Positions 487-9,144 of a stretch of 18,502 nt of DNA are shown piece after piece (the stretch's first letter is position 1; each line of letters begins with the position of its first letter). A program made the translations under genes and the position numbers. The notes under the pieces were generated by a model. It ran no database searches. It was not told the DNA's origin and saw only the letters and a program-made list of their open reading frames with translations. The stretch spans positions 1-18,502 of the forward strand of contig JBBQPO010000109.1 of assembly GCA_038217285.1 (NCBI GenBank), written 5' to 3'. The stretch comes from Chthonomonadales bacterium (lineage in GTDB: Bacteria > Armatimonadota > Chthonomonadetes > Chthonomonadales > Chthonomonadaceae).

Positions 487-1554
487 CTAGTTCTTGATCT
501 CCTCGGGAGCCTCAAGCCCGCGCAAGAGTTGTTCCAAATCCTTTGCAAGCTGAGTGAACTTGCCATAATAGAGGCAGCGGTGCGTACTGAGGTCGAAATG
601 GACAAGTTCTCCCTTGCGGGCAAGCAGTATAACCGGTATGCCGCGGCCCCAGGCATAACCAACTTCGAGGTAAACGTTTGGGCGACCCTCCGTGAGATCA
701 GCGATTACGATGAAGGCTGTTTCGATGCCATGTCTGACGCGATGCAGGATGTCGCCTGTGAAATGGGTCTTGTCGACCCTTTCGCAGATGAAACCGCAGT
801 TGCGCACGGCGGGATAGATTCCAAATTCATAGACGTTTTCGAACTCTTCCGAGTAGGGCATGGCCACAAACACACTCTTCTTGCGCGCTACCGCATCTAC
901 CCGTTGTATCTCTTCCATAGACGCTGCGTCCGTCTGTCGTATCCCATGATCTTCCTTCTCCAGTTCCAGTTGGCCGGGATCTGTTGCAGCATGCGTAATC
1001 CCGACATGTTCAGAGTTTGGTATTTCTGCGGGGAGATCCATTTGGGTAAGTACTGACTCCAACGTTCGCTTTGCCCGCTCGTCATTGGTGAGGAATTCTA
1101 TCTTTCCGATATCGGTTGATGACGCTGCAGACAAACCTCTTTGGAATCCACATATCAAGCGTTGGAGGGATTCGCCTTCGTCCAATCCATATCCGCCTCC
1201 GTGGACCGTCGTCGTCAGCACCTTCAGTGGCATCGAGAGACTGGAGAGGATTTCGATGAACCTTTGCGCGAAGCCCTGTATCTCGTCGTAGTCAAATGCA
1301 GTCAAGTCCGGCGTACCGAGGAACATGACCCGGGCGGGAGCGAGCCTGCCTTGCGTCTCAATGATCTTGAAGTCTCCAGGCTTGAGCCTGAGATCCCTCT
1401 CATCGCATAGGCCGGATGAAACAAGCATAGTCATGACTGCCCTGTCGGCACCGTAGAACGATTGCGCATGTTTCAAAAGGAGCAAATCGGACGGCTCCAA
1501 GAGAACATCTCCGAGTCGAACCACATATTCCGGCGTGTTCATAGCTCTATTCAT
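487..1554 (-). CDS. Macro-like N-terminal domain fused to a nucleoside 2-deoxyribosyltransferase/TIR-like C-terminal domain
   Basis: 355 aa ORF; an alternative ATG at 1542 lies 12 nt after GGAGG. The C-terminal VFVAMPY...RVD...IADLT..RPNVYLEVGYAWG..PVILL...FDL is the typical NDT/TIR-like signature with its conserved Glu. The N-terminal VVRLGDVL..SDLLLLKHAQ..GADRAV and TTVHGGGYGLD resemble Macro-fold motifs (less certain). Confidence 0.7.
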   Translation of the reverse strand: MNRAMNTPEYVVRLGDVLLEPSDLLLLKHAQSFYGADRAVMTMLVSSGLCDERDLRLKPGDFKIIETQGRLAPARVMFLGTPDLTAFDYDEIQGFAQRFIEILSSLSMPLKVLTTTVHGGGYGLDEGESLQRLICGFQRGLSAASSTDIGKIEFLTNDERAKRTLESVLTQMDLPAEIPNSEHVGITHAATDPGQLELEKEDHGIRQTDAASMEEIQRVDAVARKKSVFVAMPYSEEFENVYEFGIYPAVRNCGFICERVDKTHFTGDILHRVRHGIETAFIVIADLTEGRPNVYLEVGYAWGRGIPVILLARKGELVHFDLSTHRCLYYGKFTQLAKDLEQLLRGLEAPEEIKN

Positions 1555-1617
1555 CCTCCATGGTAACTTTGCAGCATGCGTCGGACAATCGCTTCCACGT
1601 GTACCCGGTCACGAATC

Positions 1618-1911
1618 CTATCGGGTTTCGGGAGGTACGATCCGGTACCCGAGTTTAAGAACCGCCTTTACCGTGCCGAGCGCAGTGATGCGGTCATACT
1701 CCTTTTCACTCTCCGGCAACGCGTCATAGGGTACGAGGCCGGGATGGAGTTTGTGGGTATCGTCCCGCTGCGCGCCATAACGCCATCCCTCGGCGGTACG
1801 CTGCACGGCCCAGAGGTCGTGTATATGTTCCGCGAGGCGTTCGGTCAAGGGCAATAGTTCTTGGGGAATCTCTACGCCATCGGTGAAGATCGGACTGGGT
1901 TCGTAGCTCAT
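1618..1911 (-). CDS. Standalone RyR (ryanodine receptor repeat) domain protein, 97 aa
   Basis: MSYEPSPIFT..VEIP.EL..L.ERLAEHIHDLWA..R..EGWRYG..RDD..KLHP.LVPYD.LPESEKEYDR......GYRI follows the RyR repeat consensus. Start moved to ATG 1911 (AAGGA RBS). Confidence 0.9.
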   Translation of the reverse strand: MSYEPSPIFTDGVEIPQELLPLTERLAEHIHDLWAVQRTAEGWRYGAQRDDTHKLHPGLVPYDALPESEKEYDRITALGTVKAVLKLGYRIVPPETR

Positions 1912-2047: not shown

Positions 2048-2779
2048 TCAGACCAGGGACCATTGTGAACAGGGGTGTCCCTCGGCTCCGAAGAAGAAGC
2101 CGACCGCGTGAGAGATAGGATCGATCACCAGGGCGATCTGCCAGTCATGGAAGAAGACGCCGCGCTGCGTCTCCAAATCGGTGGAGGAGAGAAACACCCC
2201 CATACCAGGGTGGGAATGGTAGGAACCGAGCAAGGTCCATGTCGTCGGCAGAGACTGCAACTGAGGCGTGAGAGCCTGCCACGTCGCAGCGGTATAGGCA
2301 AAGGTAACGGCAGTGCCCTCGCCATCGTGTGCCGGCAGAGCCTCTTCCACGACCACACAGTAGAGATCGAGATCTGCATCGTAGATGGATTCGCCGATCA
2401 GCAGACCGCCGAGTTCTATCCGGGTGTCACTGCGCAGGTGCCTCTGTAACTTTTCGAAGGCAGCCCGACGCACGAGACAGCAAGAGGAGCCGCGCCGCAG
2501 ATCCGGCATGCGCTCCGGCGACAGCGCGCTCAGAAATTCAGAGGCGCGCGCGCGTTGGGGCCGATAGACGTCCTCCTGATCGACCCACTCGATCTCATCG
2601 AGTTCCGGAACGACAGGCGGAGTTTCCAGGCCAGCCTTGCTCTCCCGTTCCAGTCGCTTCCTCAGCACGGACGCAACAAACGCCTCGTCCTCCTGCCGCG
2701 CCAGCAGATCCGGGTCTGCCGCATTCGGTATCGAGGGCACAGCCCGGTCTTCCGTTTTTCTCTTCCAGAAAGGACGCAT
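2048..2779 (-). CDS. JAB/MPN (JAMM) metallo-isopeptidase, deubiquitinase-like, with N-terminal extension
   Basis: ELGGLLIG ... YHSHPGMGVFLSSTD (E...H-x-H-x7-S-x2-D) ... ALVIDP is a complete JAMM motif. The ATG directly abuts the E2 stop codon. Confidence 0.93.
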   Translation of the reverse strand: MRPFWKRKTEDRAVPSIPNAADPDLLARQEDEAFVASVLRKRLERESKAGLETPPVVPELDEIEWVDQEDVYRPQRARASEFLSALSPERMPDLRRGSSCCLVRRAAFEKLQRHLRSDTRIELGGLLIGESIYDADLDLYCVVVEEALPAHDGEGTAVTFAYTAATWQALTPQLQSLPTTWTLLGSYHSHPGMGVFLSSTDLETQRGVFFHDWQIALVIDPISHAVGFFFGAEGHPCSQWSLV

Positions 2780-3382
2780 CTACAGATCCTTCCAGACGAC
2801 GGTGCTGTCCTCCTCCGCCTCATTCCGGGGCGAGAGAAAAGGCAGGTCGTCCAGGAGAGGCGTGAAGGAAGGAAGGTTGGCATCAGGCGCTTTCCGGACG
2901 GGCGGATCGTTGACAAAGGTGCAGTGGTCGGTCGGGAAAAGGAGGCGGTTCTTTTTCGCCCACTCGGCCGCCGCCTCGTTGGCAGGATCCTTGATCGCAA
3001 GATATTCACGCTCGAACTGCAGGAGCGCGCCCAGCCGAAGCGCGAACCGGTCCAAAAATTCGCTCGTCTGCCAGTTTCCCATGCAGACGACCAGGTTCTT
3101 ATAGACGTGAGGATGGTACAAGGGGGTCAGCAGTTGAACCACCGGCGGTGCGATCGGTGCGGGATATTTTGATGGCAGGCGGATAGAGACGCGGTGCATT
3201 TCTCGGTAGACCGGTCGCCCCTTCTCCAGTCGCTCGATGCCCCGACACCGATAGACCAGAACGTACTGATCGATCGGCCGCCCTTTGACCGACTCCATCA
3301 TGAGCGTTCCACCGCTTCCGTGGGCAAGCGCCCGCAGGTGGAGGTAATCTGACTGAAGACGCAGGTCTCGCGCGTTCGCCAT
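2780..3382 (-). CDS. Ubiquitin-conjugating E2 (UBC-fold) enzyme
   Basis: UBC hallmarks: N-terminal RL..D helix, IRLPSKYP...PPVV...TPLYHPHVYKNLVVC (HPx-x7-Cys), W, and DPANEAAAEW. Start is ATG 3382 (GGGGAG RBS) or GTG 3391 overlapping the Ubl stop. Confidence 0.9.
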   Translation of the reverse strand: MANARDLRLQSDYLHLRALAHGSGGTLMMESVKGRPIDQYVLVYRCRGIERLEKGRPVYREMHRVSIRLPSKYPAPIAPPVVQLLTPLYHPHVYKNLVVCMGNWQTSEFLDRFALRLGALLQFEREYLAIKDPANEAAAEWAKKNRLLFPTDHCTFVNDPPVRKAPDANLPSFTPLLDDLPFLSPRNEAEEDSTVVWKDL

Positions 3383-3387
3383 ACCGA

Positions 3388-3651
3388 TCACTCCCCGCCG
3401 TGCGTTGCCAGCGGTTGAATCATCAGGGTGTCGTGGTCGCGCACTCTCTCTTCGGTCAGCATCTCAAAAGGAAGCAACTGCCGGTTCAAAGAGAGGTTCG
3501 TGACGACGTAGTTCGAGCCGAAGAGCATCTTCCAGCGTTTGGTCGAAGCGCGTATCAGGTCCTGCGCGGTCATCGTGCGTGGAAGCACGATCTCCGCTTT
3601 GCGTGTTTTGTCCGCAGTCTGCAAATAGAAAACAACTCGTTCTCCGCTCAT
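3388..3651 (-). CDS. Ubiquitin-like (beta-grasp) modifier protein, 87 aa, C-terminus HGG-E
   Basis: Size and pattern fit Ub/YukD-like folds (beta-beta-helix ... L...EMLTEERVRDHDTLMIQP...GG). It has a di-glycine one residue before the stop and lies between E1 and E2 with 3- and 5-nt gaps. Confidence 0.85.
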   Translation of the reverse strand: MSGERVVFYLQTADKTRKAEIVLPRTMTAQDLIRASTKRWKMLFGSNYVVTNLSLNRQLLPFEMLTEERVRDHDTLMIQPLATHGGE

Positions 3652-3654
3652 GTT

Positions 3655-4818
3655 TCAGCCTTTCCAGCCCTCGCCAAAGAGATCGCCTCCGGACAGTTGG
3701 AGGAAACGCCTGGTCCCCTCCCCTTGAATGCTCACGACGGCGCCGTTCGGAAGCCCCATCCGTGCCAGTGAAACGTCCGCATAGGGTCCTGCGGCGTCCA
3801 GCCAGTTCACGGCCTCCGGTTGGCGACTGCGCGTTTTGCAATCGGGACAGAACGTCCACTCCATACCGCACCGTTCCAACGGCTTCAAAACCGTCTCTAC
3901 CGCGCCACACTCCACGCACCGCATCTGCGTCAGAAGATCGAAGCCCAGTTCGACCGCCCCGCCCGACTCGCCCGCAAGGTCCAGCAAAAGACGGGGCGTT
4001 GCTATCTCTTTTGACTGCTCGATACCCTCGATAGGTTCCCAGGTATCATGGGCCAGGCACTCACTATTTTCCGGCAGGTCGTAAACCCCGAAATGATAGG
4101 GCTTCAGAGTCAGATAGAGCTTCTGAGAGAAGGCCAGCCCCTCTTTTTGCAGTGAGCCGGCGGCATGCAGCAGCAGCAACGCCTCATTGACGAGATACCC
4201 TGCAACGATAGAGGCGACCACGGCGGTCGTCGGCATCTTCTGATCGGCCTCCTCGGCGCGCAGGCCGCCGCAGGCGAATCGCCGGTTGCGCTCCTCCCAC
4301 ATCGCCGCCGACATGGCGCACTCGTAGCAGGCTCCCGATCTGCCGTCAAACAGACTGACCTCCGCAATCGTGGCTTCGATACCGCCGTTCAGCCAGGGAA
4401 CACCCGCCCGTCGGCAAAGGCGATTCAGGGCCAGACGGGCCTGCACACTGTCGAGACAGCCGATGACGACATCCATGTCCCGATAGACGCCAAGACCGAC
4501 ATCGAATTCGAGATCACCGACGAGAGAGCGAACCCGGATGTCAGGATTGATTTCGGCAGCGCGCTCTGCCGCCACCTCTGCCTTCGCCCGCCCGTGGTCT
4601 GCGGCGCGAAACAACACGCTGCGGGTTAAGTTCGATAGCTCGACCGTATCGCTGTCCACAATGACGAGATGTCCGACACCGATGAGCGCCAGATTCTTGA
4701 TGACCTCGTTGCCGATGGCCCCCGCGCCGACCACCATGACACGCGCGTGGTGCAGACGCTCCTGGTCCCACCAGTCGATCAGCCGATGCCGCGTATAACG
4801 ATCCTCTTCGGAATTCAA
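3655..4818 (-). CDS. Ubiquitin-activating E1-like enzyme (ThiF/MoeB/E1 adenylation domain, catalytic Cys, C-terminal Zn-ribbon/ubiquitin-fold-like extension)
   Basis: Motifs DRYTRH, VVGAGAIG, D.DTVELSNLTR, KAE, CLDS..AR, CYEC, downstream FAC (candidate thioester Cys), CLAH, then CVEC...CPDC. Start reassigned to TTG 4818, which overlaps the upstream TGA (TTGA) after a GA-rich RBS; 387 aa. Confidence 0.92.
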   Translation of the reverse strand: MNSEEDRYTRHRLIDWWDQERLHHARVMVVGAGAIGNEVIKNLALIGVGHLVIVDSDTVELSNLTRSVLFRAADHGRAKAEVAAERAAEINPDIRVRSLVGDLEFDVGLGVYRDMDVVIGCLDSVQARLALNRLCRRAGVPWLNGGIEATIAEVSLFDGRSGACYECAMSAAMWEERNRRFACGGLRAEEADQKMPTTAVVASIVAGYLVNEALLLLHAAGSLQKEGLAFSQKLYLTLKPYHFGVYDLPENSECLAHDTWEPIEGIEQSKEIATPRLLLDLAGESGGAVELGFDLLTQMRCVECGAVETVLKPLERCGMEWTFCPDCKTRSRQPEAVNWLDAAGPYADVSLARMGLPNGAVVSIQGEGTRRFLQLSGGDLFGEGWKG

Positions 4819-5159
4819 AGGTGCGTCTCTCTCTCCCGGAAGGGCACCACGGAGCCAGCCTTCCGGCAGTGACAGCAGCGCCCTTTGTCCGTATCCCGAA
4901 GAAAGGCCCAACCTTCGGCGCTATAGGCCGTATTGCAGTTACGGCACAGATAGAGGAAACTGCCTGTTTGCAGCGACTGGCGGGTGACAGGGCAGACCAG
5001 GGCGGTGTCTATGCCGAGCGCGGCAGCCTGGGGCGGACTCAACGAACGAAATTCGACGTTGGGATCGTCCGGCAGTTCGGCAGCATCGCGCGACGATTGC
5101 AGTGTGTTATCACGCAGGAGCCCCATTCTCATCAGCAGTGCTGTCAGTCGTTCCCGCAT
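4815..5159 (-). CDS. Small Cys-rich protein with a degenerate RING-like finger (candidate E3)
   Basis: 114 aa from ATG 5159 (AAGGAGG RBS). Contains CPVT-x12-CRNC-x3-YSAEGW-x10-CCHC. Translationally coupled to E1. Confidence 0.7.
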   Translation of the reverse strand: MRERLTALLMRMGLLRDNTLQSSRDAAELPDDPNVEFRSLSPPQAAALGIDTALVCPVTRQSLQTGSFLYLCRNCNTAYSAEGWAFLRDTDKGRCCHCRKAGSVVPFRERETHL

Positions 5160-5187: not shown

Positions 5188-5526
5188 CTACAGTGCGTCA
5201 TCTCCTCGCTCCTCGGTACGCACACGGACGGCGTCTTCCATTGGCAGCACGAAGATTTTACCGTCGCCCTGTTCGCCTGTATGCGCATGGCGTTCTATCG
5301 TAGTGACGATCTCATCGATGTCTTCGTCACGCGCCACGATCTCGATCTTGATCTTCATAGGCAGTTCGATCGCGTACTCCACGCCCCGAAAACTCTCCCG
5401 ATGACCACGCTGCCGCCCACTGCCCCGCACATCCGACACCGAGAGCCCCGTCACCCCGATCTCCCCCAGCGCAATCTTGACCTCATCCAACTTGAGCGGC
5501 CGAATAATCGCCTCAATCTTCTTCAT
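5188..5526 (-). CDS. glnB: P-II family nitrogen regulatory protein (GlnB/GlnK)
   Basis: Canonical 112 aa: MKKIEAIIRP, GRQ39, RGVEY51, K58, TGEQGDGKIF, RVRT. glnB versus glnK cannot be resolved; no amtB is adjacent. Confidence 0.95.
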   Translation of the reverse strand: MKKIEAIIRPLKLDEVKIALGEIGVTGLSVSDVRGSGRQRGHRESFRGVEYAIELPMKIKIEIVARDEDIDEIVTTIERHAHTGEQGDGKIFVLPMEDAVRVRTEERGDDAL

Positions 5527-5575: not shown

Positions 5576-6526
5576 TTATTGTTCGCGCAGCACCCGCACG
5601 GCGACATCCATTGCGCGGGCAAAAGGGCCTCGGTAGATCCCGCGTATCGGTGGAACGTCCCCATAATCCCGCCCGAAATGGACCTTCACGTAGTTCTGAT
5701 TGGTCAGCAGATTGTTCGTCGGGTCGAAGCCATGCCATTTGCCGTCCGACAGCAGACATTCGACCCAGGCGTGCATGGCGTCTCCGCCGGTGGGACTGGT
5801 GCGAAGTGAGTAGGACGGCTTCTCGTCCACGCTATCCTCCGGTAGTTCCGTGACAGGATAGTCTTCCGCGCGTTCGCCGGTGTAGAGATAGCCGCTGACG
5901 TAGCGCGCAGGAATGTGCTGGCGACGACAGACGGCGAGCATGAGATGGGCGAAGTCCTGACAGACGCCACTTTTCTGTTCAAGCACCTGCTGAATCGAAG
6001 AGTTGACGTTGGTCGCTCCCGGCGCGTAGGCGATCACATGGTAGAGCAGCCGCGTCAGAGCGATCAGAAAGGAGGCGGAACCGACGTCTGCCTGCTTGTG
6101 CGCCACGACCGCGATGCGCTCCGTCTCCGGATGGAGGAGCACCCGTTCGGTCGGAGCCAGATACTCGCCATAGCGCTCCCGAACTGTCGGCTGCCGATAG
6201 AACGCGCTGTCGTCTTCGGTCAGGTTGAGTCCCGCGAACGGGTCGTGGCGATGCGTGACGACCAGCGACTCGGCCATAATCGCCAGTTCGTGGTGCGCAG
6301 AGCGGACGCCGAAGTGGTGGACGCGACCGGTGGGCAGATCGTACTCGAAAACCGGTGTGGACGGCAGGACCGTCAGGCGGAAGTCGAGGCACGTCTGATC
6401 GCCGTCGCTCAAGGGCATCAGTCGAACTTCGTTGTGACTCTCCGTCGCGGGAGTCGTGTAGCTGTATCGGGTCGTATGGTAGAGGCGCAGGCGCACGGTG
6501 GCAGTTTCCCTGTTCCGGAGAGACAC
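5576..6526 (-). CDS. Transglutaminase-like protein (bacterial transglutaminase N-terminal domain plus catalytic core)
   Basis: N-domain H.TRYSY...NEVRL.P; catalytic triad in GVCQDFAH, HAWVE and FDPTN; also ARYVSGYL and GRDYGDV.P. The start may be GTG 6496. Confidence 0.93.
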   Translation of the reverse strand: MSLRNRETATVRLRLYHTTRYSYTTPATESHNEVRLMPLSDGDQTCLDFRLTVLPSTPVFEYDLPTGRVHHFGVRSAHHELAIMAESLVVTHRHDPFAGLNLTEDDSAFYRQPTVRERYGEYLAPTERVLLHPETERIAVVAHKQADVGSASFLIALTRLLYHVIAYAPGATNVNSSIQQVLEQKSGVCQDFAHLMLAVCRRQHIPARYVSGYLYTGERAEDYPVTELPEDSVDEKPSYSLRTSPTGGDAMHAWVECLLSDGKWHGFDPTNNLLTNQNYVKVHFGRDYGDVPPIRGIYRGPFARAMDVAVRVLREQ

Positions 6527-6532
6527 GATCTC

Positions 6533-7564
6533 TCAGTAGGAGAGATAGGTGCGTGTGATCGCTCGGCCGACATCGTCGCAGCGTCCCTGTACGCTGTCCA
6601 GAAACTGATGCAGCCCGCTGCGGATGATCTCGTCGGAGCGTATATAGGTCAGGTCGGCGCGCAGTCTGCCGAGGAGACGTTCCGGATCGGTCGTCGGTTC
6701 GTCGCGCATATTGCCGCTAATGCGCTTCTGGCAGCCCTCGACGCGCCCGATCCCATGCCGCACCGAAGCCGGGAAGGTGGGGTTGAGCACCAGGAAATCG
6801 ACGATGCTGGCTGGCCGGATCCCGTCGTGGTGCGTTTTACGATACATTTCGAAGGCGCTGACCGATTTCAGCACCGCAATCCAGCCGTGCATATCCAGCG
6901 GCCCGCCGACTCCGTAAGGGTTGGGCTGTCGTTCCGCCGACGGCGCATGGTCGGTTTCTGGAATGTCGGTGACGTAGACCGGCAGCAGGTCGTGGTACTT
7001 CACATCCAGTAGACGCGCTGTCTGAATGGCGCGCTCCAAAAAGCGCCCGGTGTCGAGCCAGTCACGGGGTTCGCTCATCAACATCGTGCGATTGAGGATG
7101 CCCTGAAACAGGTGGGAGGCGTTCTTCACGGCTTGAAAGAACTCGTGTGGAGAGCCGGCCAGCACGCGGTCCACGTTCCACTCCCGCAGCTGCAAGTAAA
7201 AGACGTTCAGGCTCTCCCACATCTCCGAGGCGATCTGCTCTCGAATCGAACGGGCATTTTCCCGGGCTCCGGTCCAGACCCGCAAAATCGAACCCGGATT
7301 CTCCATATCGAAAACGAAAAAATGGATTACGTCCCGGTCGTTCTCCGTGGCATAGCGCGCATGATAGTCTTTCGTGCTGCCGGAGATCGCGAGCAGCGAC
7401 GCCCAGCGCATCGGCGTAAACGCGTCCTCTCGATCGAGATCGGCGGCGGGAAGCGTCGTCTCCAGCGCGGCGTGATAGTGAACATCGACCATGCGGGCGG
7501 TCGCTTCGGCGCGTTCGACGTAGCGGCCGATCCAGTAACAGGAGTCGGCATCTCGACTGAGCAT
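6533..7564 (-). CDS. Alpha-E domain protein (DUF403)
   Basis: MLSR.A...YWIGRYVERAE.TAR, ARENARSIRE.I..EMWE and GRFLERA..TARLLDVKY: the repeated ER motifs of alpha-E proteins. The ATG overlaps the upstream TAA. Confidence 0.93.
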   Translation of the reverse strand: MLSRDADSCYWIGRYVERAEATARMVDVHYHAALETTLPAADLDREDAFTPMRWASLLAISGSTKDYHARYATENDRDVIHFFVFDMENPGSILRVWTGARENARSIREQIASEMWESLNVFYLQLREWNVDRVLAGSPHEFFQAVKNASHLFQGILNRTMLMSEPRDWLDTGRFLERAIQTARLLDVKYHDLLPVYVTDIPETDHAPSAERQPNPYGVGGPLDMHGWIAVLKSVSAFEMYRKTHHDGIRPASIVDFLVLNPTFPASVRHGIGRVEGCQKRISGNMRDEPTTDPERLLGRLRADLTYIRSDEIIRSGLHQFLDSVQGRCDDVGRAITRTYLSY

Positions 7565-9144
7565 TACGAGCCTCCTTCCGGTTCGGTCGTCGGAGCCGGT
7601 TTGCCGAAGCTCTGCGTCATGCCGCCCAGCGACTGCGCCATTCCCGTTCCGGTCATCATCTGACTCATGCCATTCCTCTGCTGGCTAAGGCTCGCATTGT
7701 CGTGCGCGAGCACCCAGGTGTCTTTGCTGCCGCCCCCCTGCGAGGAGTTGACGACATAAGAGCCTTTGCGCAACGCGACCCGTGTCAGGGCGCCGGGAAT
7801 GATGGTGATCTCCTTCTGTCCATACAGAATATAGGGTCGCAGATCGATATGTCGCCCCTCCATGTTGGTTTCGTCGATAAAAGAGGGCGCTTGCGACAGG
7901 GAGATGAGCGGTTGGGCAATGTAGTTGCGCGGATTCGCCTTTATCTTCTCGGCGAACTCGGCGCGTTCGGCCTGGCTCGCCTGCGGCCCCATCAGCATCC
8001 CGTAGCCGCCCGACTCGTTGGCGGCTTTGACCACCAGTTTGTCGAGGTTGGCCAGAATATACTGCCTCTGCGTCGGCTCCGAGGCGAGAAAAGTTTCGAC
8101 ATTATCGAGGATCGGCTTCTCGCCCAGATAGTACTCGATGATGCGCGGCACGTAGGCGTAGACGACCTTGTCGTCCGCAACGCCCGTGCCGATGGAGTTC
8201 GCGAGGGCGACGTTGCCACTGCGGTAGGCATTGACCAGTCCCGCCGCGCCGAGCGCCGAGTCGCCGCGGAACACCAGGGGGTCGAGAAAGTCGTCGTCCA
8301 CCCGGCGATAGATCACATCGACCCGTTCCGGTCCTTTCGTGGTCTTCATGTAGACGATATTGTTGTCTACAAACAGGTCGCGCCCCTGCACCAGTTCGAT
8401 GCCGAGCTGTTGGGCGAGAAAGGCGTGTTCGAAATAGGCGCTATTGTAGACGCCGGGGGTGAGCAGCACCACATTGGGAGAGTCCCGGCGGCCCTCCGGG
8501 GCGAGCTCGCGCAGATTGTTCAACAGTTGCGTCGTATAGTGATCGACGGGTCGCACGGGCAGGTCACGGAACATCTGCGGCAGCACGCGCGTCAGGATGA
8601 TCCGGTTTTCCAGCACATAGGAGACTCCGGACGGCGTACGCAGGTTGTCTTCGAGGACTTTGTACGTTCCGTGCTGGTCACGGATCAGGTCGCTGCCGCA
8701 GATATGCACATAGATACCGCCGGGCGGATCGGCGCCCAGGAACTCGCGCCGGAAGTAGGCGGCGTTCACAATGAGGTCACGCGGAATGACACGGTCCGCC
8801 AGGATCTTCTGGTCGTGGTAGACATCGTGAATGAACAGGTTCAGGGCGGTCAGACGCTGCTTGAGGCCGCGCTCGATCAGTTCCCATTCGTCGGCCGGAA
8901 TGATCCTCGGAATCAGGTCGAAGGGGAAGGGCTTTTCCACCCCCTGCTCGCCGCCATAGACCGCGAACGTGATGCCCTGATTAATGAGAGTCAGCTCGGC
9001 CAACTGGCATCGACGGCGGAAGTCTTCGAGAGACAGGCCGGTGAGACGCTGGAACAGTTTCCAGTAGTGGGGGCGTGGTTGGCCGTCCGGCTGAAACATT
9101 TCATCGTAGAAGCCATTGGTCTGATAGTTGTCGAATAGTGGCAT
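7564..9144 (-). CDS. Circularly permuted type 2 ATP-grasp peptide ligase (DUF404/DUF407 type)
   Basis: YDEM, GITF.VY, PFDLIPR, LEDNLRTPSGVSY, NSAYFEH, RVDVIYRR, GVADDK, SGGYGM, DLRP, VVNSSQGGGSKDTWV. Start reassigned to ATG 9144 behind AGGAGG; 526 aa. Confidence 0.95.
   Translation of the reverse strand: MPLFDNYQTNGFYDEMFQPDGQPRPHYWKLFQRLTGLSLEDFRRRCQLAELTLINQGITFAVYGGEQGVEKPFPFDLIPRIIPADEWELIERGLKQRLTALNLFIHDVYHDQKILADRVIPRDLIVNAAYFRREFLGADPPGGIYVHICGSDLIRDQHGTYKVLEDNLRTPSGVSYVLENRIILTRVLPQMFRDLPVRPVDHYTTQLLNNLRELAPEGRRDSPNVVLLTPGVYNSAYFEHAFLAQQLGIELVQGRDLFVDNNIVYMKTTKGPERVDVIYRRVDDDFLDPLVFRGDSALGAAGLVNAYRSGNVALANSIGTGVADDKVVYAYVPRIIEYYLGEKPILDNVETFLASEPTQRQYILANLDKLVVKAANESGGYGMLMGPQASQAERAEFAEKIKANPRNYIAQPLISLSQAPSFIDETNMEGRHIDLRPYILYGQKEITIIPGALTRVALRKGSYVVNSSQGGGSKDTWVLAHDNASLSQQRNGMSQMMTGTGMAQSLGGMTQSFGKPAPTTEPEGGS
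7612..7671 (-). repeat. Three G-M-x-Q coding repeats in the ATP-grasp C-terminal tail
   Basis: GGC ATG AGT CAG, GGA ATG GCG CAG and GGC ATG ACG CAG within ...NGMSQMMTGTGMAQSLGGMTQSFG... Confidence 0.7.

Follow-up and report, generated by a model that had tools for sequence, protein, structure and literature searches.

Operons that combine a Ubl (ubiquitin-like protein) with an E1, an E2, a RING protein and a JAB protease have been predicted in bacteria and are described as uncharacterised (PMC4197634, PMC10557695, PMC7159879), among others in a 2023 preprint that still lists RING-type operons in this way (PMC10557695). As defined from these citing papers, such operons hold the same five components in one conserved neighbourhood, with a YukD-like Ubl ending in Gly. 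We analysed a cassette of this kind at positions 2048-5159 of an 18,502-nucleotide stretch of DNA from a Chthonomonadales bacterium (assembly GCA_038217285.1, contig JBBQPO010000109.1), which we call the window. The original prediction, made from the DNA alone, placed RING-containing versions mainly in archaea and in predictions for a few bacterial lineages, and its proposal of a candidate undescribed system was overstated since such operons had already been predicted. On sequence comparison the cassette is a variant of the predicted RING-containing prokaryotic Ubl operons, and what is distinctive is its variant anatomy and vertical inheritance, not the general kind. Our preferred reading, with a probability of roughly 0.58, is a soluble pathway of the E1-E2-E3 type that conjugates proteins and is passed on vertically. 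Most likely it places reversible regulatory or stress marks on endogenous proteins, and it may be linked to the nitrogen status of the cell.

Larger Armatimonadota operons with a canonical Prok-RING_1 protein have E1s that share 38-42% identity with the window E1. Compared with these larger predicted operons, the window has no membrane helix on its single RING and no trypsin, FHA protein, second E2 or second JAB. Its RING also differs from those of the predicted operons in having no zinc site I and in being fused to a SWIM finger in some genera. Most relatives are membrane-anchored and multi-gene, and the window set consists of five small soluble proteins; whether bacteria run a true E1-E2-RING E3 cascade therefore becomes directly testable. 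In the literature searched, with most subscription papers and supplements outside its scope, no bacterial RING cascade is reconstituted or otherwise studied by experiment and these loci are not mentioned; PMC1779556 contributes nothing on this operon. In archaea, the reconstituted ubiquitin operon of Caldiarchaeum subterraneum (PMC5654768) has in common with the window a JAMM-trimmed Ubl precursor, an E1 with a C-terminal ubiquitin-like domain, a separate E2 and a small soluble RING. It has a true di-Gly ubiquitin and a two-zinc RING-H2, whereas the window encodes a YukD-like Ubl with a His-Gly end and a one-zinc RING.

The cassette is not Bil, Bub or CBASS. Bil systems (BilABCD, types I and II) share separate E1, E2, Ubl and JAB genes, Cys thioester chemistry and pro-Ubl trimming. 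Their E1, BilD, is described with an IAD-AAD-CYS architecture without a ubiquitin-fold domain (UFD), and the systems without an E3 (PMC10557695), whereas the window E1 has a single ThiF stretch, one adenylation domain and a UFD, and a RING is inherited with it. Bub (6E/DUF6527) has E1, E2 and JAB-type parts in common with the window and is described with Tyr/Ser oxyesters, fusions and DUF6527 (PMC11601596, PMC11601603). There is no DUF6527 match among the window proteins scanned, the E1 and E2 catalytic residues are invariant Cys, and the genes are separate. Type II CBASS also shares E1, E2 and JAB-type parts in Cap2 and Cap3, but combines an E2-E1 fusion with a CD-NTase; the window has neither, and its genes are separate. 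The comparison with Bil and Bub that had been proposed earlier was made by features and with PADLOC and matched neither; in PADLOC the E1-E2/JAB models of CBASS were matched in part only, with incomplete coverage of the Cap2 models.

The five cassette proteins

The coupled genes lie on the minus strand in the order RING-E1-Ubl-E2-JAB with successive spacings of -4, 3, 5 and 0 nt, exactly as first described. They encode the candidate E3 RING protein (5159-4815, 114 aa), the E1 (4818-3655, 387 aa from a TTG start, with a ThiF adenylation domain and the C-terminal UFD), the YukD-like beta-grasp Ubl (3651-3388, 87 aa), the E2 (3382-2780, 200 aa) and the JAB/JAMM protease (2779-2048, 243 aa). A GTG at 3391 was rejected as the E2 start because ortholog E2s begin at ATG. 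The arrangement is not due to chance, since a gene-order survey of the sort first suggested found that 10 of the 19 ortholog loci keep all five genes in this order. Pfam identifies the E1 as ThiF (E 1e-52), the E2 as UQ_con (E 9e-8) and the JAB as Prok-JAB (E 2e-8), and has no match for the window RING or the window Ubl; no cassette protein reaches any NCBIfam family cut-off. Each of the five shows purifying selection, with dN/dS values of 0.06-0.21 against one same-genus genome, a comparison in which dS (1.05-1.79) is near saturation. Scans for promoters and terminators gave no excess over shuffles (1 versus 1.3 and 4 versus 2.7).

The RING protein had been called Cys-rich and RING-like. The modelled RING fold and homology to Prok-RING_1 bear this out, with the qualification that of the eight canonical zinc ligands just four remain as an intact site. 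Site II is kept (C72, C75, C95 and C98), and site I is reduced to C56, T59, S80 and G83, of which the last three occupy ligand positions 2, 5 and 6 in an alignment with canonical Prok-RING_1. The site II cysteines, T59 and W84 are invariant in 32/32 homologs. The C4HC3 eight-ligand set of PF14446 (Prok-RING_1) is absent from the window RING, and orthologs score 13-17 bits against that family, below its cut-off of 29.1; hhalign nevertheless aligns the protein ligand for ligand with a Prok-RING_1 (E 1.9e-5, probability 78%). An AlphaFold model (pLDDT 72.5 overall, >90 in the core) matches RING, U-box and SP-RING chains in Foldseek (best E 2e-3), and the same classes head the VIA-align results (Z 6.2, rmsd 2.6-3.6, 57-69 residues aligned). 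Scores in the structure search are middling, and nearly all of its 50 rows belong to one fold class. In the ESM Atlas the best similarity is 0.87, with Prok-RING_1 clusters at 0.86, which we take only as a lead. A single zinc in site II, with polar residues in place of site I, defines the SP-RING/Miz form, which can be active as an E3, as single-zinc Miz domains are (bioRxiv 10.1101/2025.10.14.682297). Judged by its ligands, the window RING is of this single-zinc SP-RING/Miz-like type, with site II only. PMC11354881 states that bacterial RINGs without two zinc-ligand pairs are known, citing PMC6274744, to which a term search did not trace the statement.

V58 and W84 are kept at the E2-binding positions of the RING, and we infer that they correspond to the Ile and Trp that the Caldiarchaeum RING requires (PMC5654768). 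No transmembrane helix is predicted in the window RING. An N-terminal SWIM finger is fused in 8/19 RING orthologs, a set made up of 18 genomes plus genome G368, in which a contig end truncates one further protein and the 127-aa frame of G031 was not parsed. An extra cysteine, C96, stands where RINGs usually have Pro, and at least 90% of homologs share it.

The catalytic motifs reported earlier for the E1, E2 and JAB are all present, and the catalytic cysteines and the JAMM motif are conserved in orthologs. In the E1 (within 4818-3655) they comprise G31xGxxG36, C164xxC167 and C183. Residues C164, C167, C183, C254 and H257 are invariant in 12/12 sequences; C164, C167, C254 and H257 make up a zinc site, and C183 is the likely catalytic residue. 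The C-terminal UFD spans about residues 258-382 and contains an inserted zinc ribbon (C301, C304, C324 and C327). This domain was modelled with a pLDDT of 92.7, and the top seven structural matches of the model, at Z 6.0-7.6, come from SUMO or NEDD8 E1s, as chains with a UFD or as the UFD itself, a result with which a second search agrees. The E1 model thus bears a UFD like those of SUMO and NEDD8 E1s.

Orthologs of the Ubl match YukD (E 1e-7 to 1e-4), and the window Ubl has an ESM Atlas similarity of 0.94 to clusters in which 22-33% of members are YukD. The Ubl had been described as GG-bearing, which proved to be incidental. G85 is invariant, and 5/19 aligned Ubls stop at this residue. Among 114 homologs the domain ends in His-Gly in 105 and Ala-Gly in 8, and the next residue is Gly in 39, another residue in 59 and a stop in 15. 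Di-Gly was accordingly rejected as the mature end. As His-Gly is so common and the following residue so variable, the predicted mature Ubl ends in ...T-H-G85, leaving a propeptide GE. No Ubl lysine is invariant, the most conserved being K18 (13/19), so Ubl chains are not evident. The beta2-alpha1 segment is basic, with a net charge of +4 to +8 in 18/19 Ubls.

The E2 (within 3382-2780) has a loop-4 motif P70xxY73P74, a catalytic region H90-P-H-x7-C100, a variable linker and a C-terminal motif TVVWKDL. C100 is invariant in 20/20 orthologs. In all 20 a His replaces the Asn of the canonical HPN (HPH in 15, NPH in 5), whereas this Asn is kept in 18/18 distant E2s of the phylum. HPH is a mark of UBE2W, which tags protein N-termini (PMC9527308, PMC4630614), and a flexible C-terminus is a second feature that UBE2W and the window E2 have in common. 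The best matches of the E2 profile in the PDB are UBE2L3, UBE2T and UBE2L6, with UBE2W not among the best 60 of 141; HPH is therefore only a hint of UBE2W-like function, since the E2 is otherwise not UBE2W-like among the matches listed. In the JAB, the motif E122...H188xH190x7S198x2D201 is invariant in 16/16 orthologs. In several genera (loci L029, L032, L033, L034 and L039) the JAB N-terminus is hydrophobic and by eye resembles a membrane anchor, a feature absent from the window JAB.

Distribution and inheritance of the operon

The E2 matches 21/61 genomes, 20 of them with orthologs and one with a distant type only, and the Ubl is present in the same 20/61 genomes. The RING is found in 18 of these 20, the exceptions being two metagenome-assembled genomes that are 67% and 73% complete. 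Apart from the 10 ortholog loci with the full gene order, four are cut by contig ends and five are broken up. In five genomes of two genera with a broken operon, the E1 and the RING are each encoded elsewhere in 5/5, as is the JAB; the Ubl of G368 is left out of this count. A tree of the E2 has starred clades for 6/6 genera represented by more than one genome. A phage collection yielded no E2 match and a plasmid collection one full-length E1 match. Because the E2, Ubl and RING co-occur, the E2 tree follows the genera and dispersal of the operon does not entail loss of its genes, we prefer to see a modifier with a housekeeping or regulatory role here rather than a mobile cassette for defence. 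The sequence comparisons thus favour a vertically inherited operon family of Chthonomonadaceae, and this inheritance pattern suggests bacterial Ubl conjugation outside phage defence.

Proposed pathway and rival explanations

The RING/U-box/SP-RING fold, the UFD and the distinction from Bil and Bub are the grounds for a eukaryote-like, three-enzyme reading. The original claim to that effect gains support from the RING fold and the UFD, and the pathway itself is a prediction from sequences and models. In the mechanism we propose, the JAB would trim the pro-Ubl after His-Gly85, as conservation suggests, and a homodimeric E1 carrying the motifs described above would adenylate Gly85 and form a thioester at C183. 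The UFD may then recruit the E2 for transfer of the Ubl to C100. The single-zinc RING would bind the E2 via V58 and W84 and promote transfer to an amine of a host protein, with the SWIM finger, where present, binding substrate, and the JAB would reverse the mark. The cassette very probably performs Ubl conjugation, the RING likely acts as its E3, and the targets are more probably than not mainly endogenous proteins.

An acidic-hydrophobic motif shared by three of the proteins may add a docking step. It lies outside the folded domains, as DEIEWVDQ in the JAB N-terminus (with invariant W65), TVVWKDL at the E2 C-terminus (W197) and PNVEFRSL at residues 33-40 of the RING (F37). A profile built from 16 JAB sites alone picks the tail as the best E2 window in 18/20 E2s. 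The tail scores at least 2 in 19/20, versus 2.2% of 4036 crude background open reading frame tails, and the 20th also carries the motif, its low score reflecting a sequence cut by the chosen coordinates. The three motifs match the consensus of SUMO-interacting motifs (SIMs), a hydrophobic core with an acidic flank in a flexible segment. In its basic charge the beta2-alpha1 segment of the Ubl is like the SIM groove of SUMO described in PMC12687455. By analogy with SIMs and SUMO, the E2, JAB and RING could dock on the Ubl at a basic beta2-alpha1 groove, an idea we hold tentatively and at somewhat less than even odds. A predicted complex of Ubl residues 1-85 with JAB segment 48-82 scored 0.26 against a mark of 0.32, with controls not folded, and counts neither way. 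The SUMO pathway (SAE2 UFD, Siz/PIAS and Nse2 SP-RINGs, SIMs) has a UFD fold, a site-II RING and possible SIM-like motifs in common with the cassette, through analogy or convergence; no PINIT domain was seen in the window proteins, which include a JAMM instead of a Cys protease. A bolder and rather doubtful extension is that the cassette might be an independently built SUMO-like housekeeping modifier, with a UFD-bearing E1, a single-zinc (SWIM-)RING E3, a SIM-like docking network in a lineage-specific motif 'dialect', and a UBE2W-like E2 that perhaps tags N-termini rather than lysines. A SIM-like motif code or N-terminal conjugation, if true, would extend these eukaryotic devices to bacteria.

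Several observations weigh against a vertically inherited regulatory pathway with these parts. Characterised bacterial Ubl systems are all linked to defence in the sources consulted (PMC10557695, PMC12687455). Distribution is patchy, with orthologs in 18/36 other genomes of the family, a relative operon is located on a plasmid, and the inheritance tree is that of a single gene (E2) with no species tree beside it. The link to glnB, discussed below, is found in only 5/19 loci. Fold Z-scores for the RING and the E1 C-terminal domain are below 8 and hence middling, and R99 at the RING linchpin position is invariant only in close homologs, with D, G, H or Q in other genera. For the docking motif, RING scores are weak (-3.5 to 10.6, with the site top-ranked in 13/17), E1 windows score up to 10.5 at scattered places with the same JAB-site profile, the patterns were picked after inspecting the sequences, and the kin compared are not independent.

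The defence connection is the basis of a rival explanation in which, as in Bil, the Ubl would be put on phage or plasmid proteins with the RING or SWIM finger as specificity adaptor. RING operons are also predicted to act in defence (PMC10557695), and both the patchy distribution with a plasmid-borne relative and the TIR-like and NB-ARC/TPR-type genes just downstream in the window fit this idea. The downstream genes, however, are in none of the 19 ortholog loci searched and lie behind a 247-bp repeat, the PADLOC matches are only partial, and retention of all parts after dispersal together with a genus-consistent E2 tree would be unusual for mobile defence cassettes. We regard this explanation as unlikely. 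Routing of Ubl-marked proteins to the 20S proteasome, for example in nitrogen starvation, appears less likely again. Such routing has been proposed for related Ubls (PMC7159879), one contig of the genome encodes proteasome subunits together with two Pup-ligase-family proteins, a distant operon of the family includes a proteasomal ATPase, and the neighbouring ATP-grasp, Alpha-E and transglutaminase genes belong to the Anbu operon, in which Anbu is induced by nitrogen limitation (PMC5666114). Set against this, the Pup system already provides a tag, the operon is without a proteasomal ATPase or receptor, and no Ubl lysine is invariant.

Two further explanations concern the cascade itself. Conjugation might occur with the RING as a vestigial or non-E3 accessory while the E2 picks its targets, as proposed for Bil. 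Loss of zinc site I, the variable linchpin and a RING dN/dS of 0.17, among the faster-evolving cassette genes, would fit; the invariance of T59, W84 and four Cys in 32/32 homologs, the retention of the RING when separated from the operon and the E3 activity of single-zinc Miz domains (bioRxiv 10.1101/2025.10.14.682297) make this very improbable. Nor is a sulfur carrier pathway of the ThiS/MoaD/CysO thiocarboxylate type at all credible. Sulfur carriers also use a ThiF-family E1 and a JAB trimming protease, and a ThiF-family E1 is present here, but it falls far below the ThiF/MoeB equivalog cut-offs. Moreover, the cassette includes an E2 whose Cys is invariant as well as a RING and a UFD, and no rhodanese or sulfur-acceptor gene stands beside it among the window genes scanned.

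Genomic neighbourhood and related operons

Upstream of the RING gene by 28 nt, and probably co-transcribed with it, is glnB, which encodes a P-II protein (5188-5526, minus strand). It is preceded by genes for a circularly permuted ATP-grasp protein, an Alpha-E protein and a transglutaminase (5576-9144, minus strand). The four genes precede the RING gene in the window and in 5/19 ortholog loci from three genera. ATP-grasp, Alpha-E and transglutaminase are members of the Anbu operon (PMC5666114), and in the window cluster glnB occupies a place where Anbu is often found. The Pup-proteasome locus mentioned above (G000:C88, 825-7023) holds the two Pup-ligase-family genes and two proteasome subunits.

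A 247-bp direct repeat (1963-2209) covers the 3' end of the JAB gene and is 95% identical to a copy on another contig of the genome (G000:C275:6037-6283). That copy lies just ahead of a YegS/DAGK gene, the gene that follows JAB in same-genus relatives. The repeat copies bracket the RyR, TIR-like and NTPase-TPR genes, which are thus a later insertion; since the two contigs do not overlap, their adjacency is inferred. The RyR-domain and TIR-like genes (487-1911, minus strand) are cargo of this insertion, outside the cassette. Neither was found in any of 23 loci searched, and as both also lie behind the repeat they were rejected as cassette effectors. No integrase was seen in the available parts of the insertion. 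The TIR-like protein (487-1554, minus strand, 355 aa) has a C-terminal TIR-like/nucleoside 2-deoxyribosyltransferase domain that matches a PADLOC TIR effector (E 1.8e-13), and an N-terminal domain without a family assignment.

Across the phylum, the E2 profile finds a match in 62/401 genomes, of which 15 have orthologs; among the remaining 47 genomes, 14 loci were opened, five of which are listed in full. They hold larger operons. Such operons of other Armatimonadota (L075 8007-18476, L076, L077, L079 and L081) encode either one E2 or two, as many as three JABs (one fused to LysM), trypsin, FHA, up to five membrane-anchored Prok-RING proteins and a D-L/I-x-I-x-L motif. In two of them Pfam confirms Prok-RING_1 in its canonical form and the LysM-fused JAB, trypsin and FHA proteins. 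A motif of this type occurs 17 times in 14/36 proteins of four other Armatimonadota operons. A cyanobacterial operon on a Crinalium plasmid (L089 8995-16070, NC_019754.1) encodes an E1, a pair of Ubls (of which one has no terminal Gly), an E2, a JAB and a coupling-protein-like ATPase, with degenerate RING-like proteins downstream. It has a repeated L-x-W-R-D motif, and LxW[RQ] occurs 10 times in 5/11 of its proteins scanned. Background rates in the window's genome are 0.17 (LxW[RQ]) and 0.08 (D-L/I-x-I-x-L) per 1000 aa, and neither operon-specific motif is present in any Ubl of the operons scanned. The family has a further Ubl system of a distant type (L040 3766-9853; L041, L042 and L084), which comprises a RING-like protein, E1, E2, a protein of unknown type, Ubl and JAB, beside a proteasomal-type AAA ATPase with OB domains.

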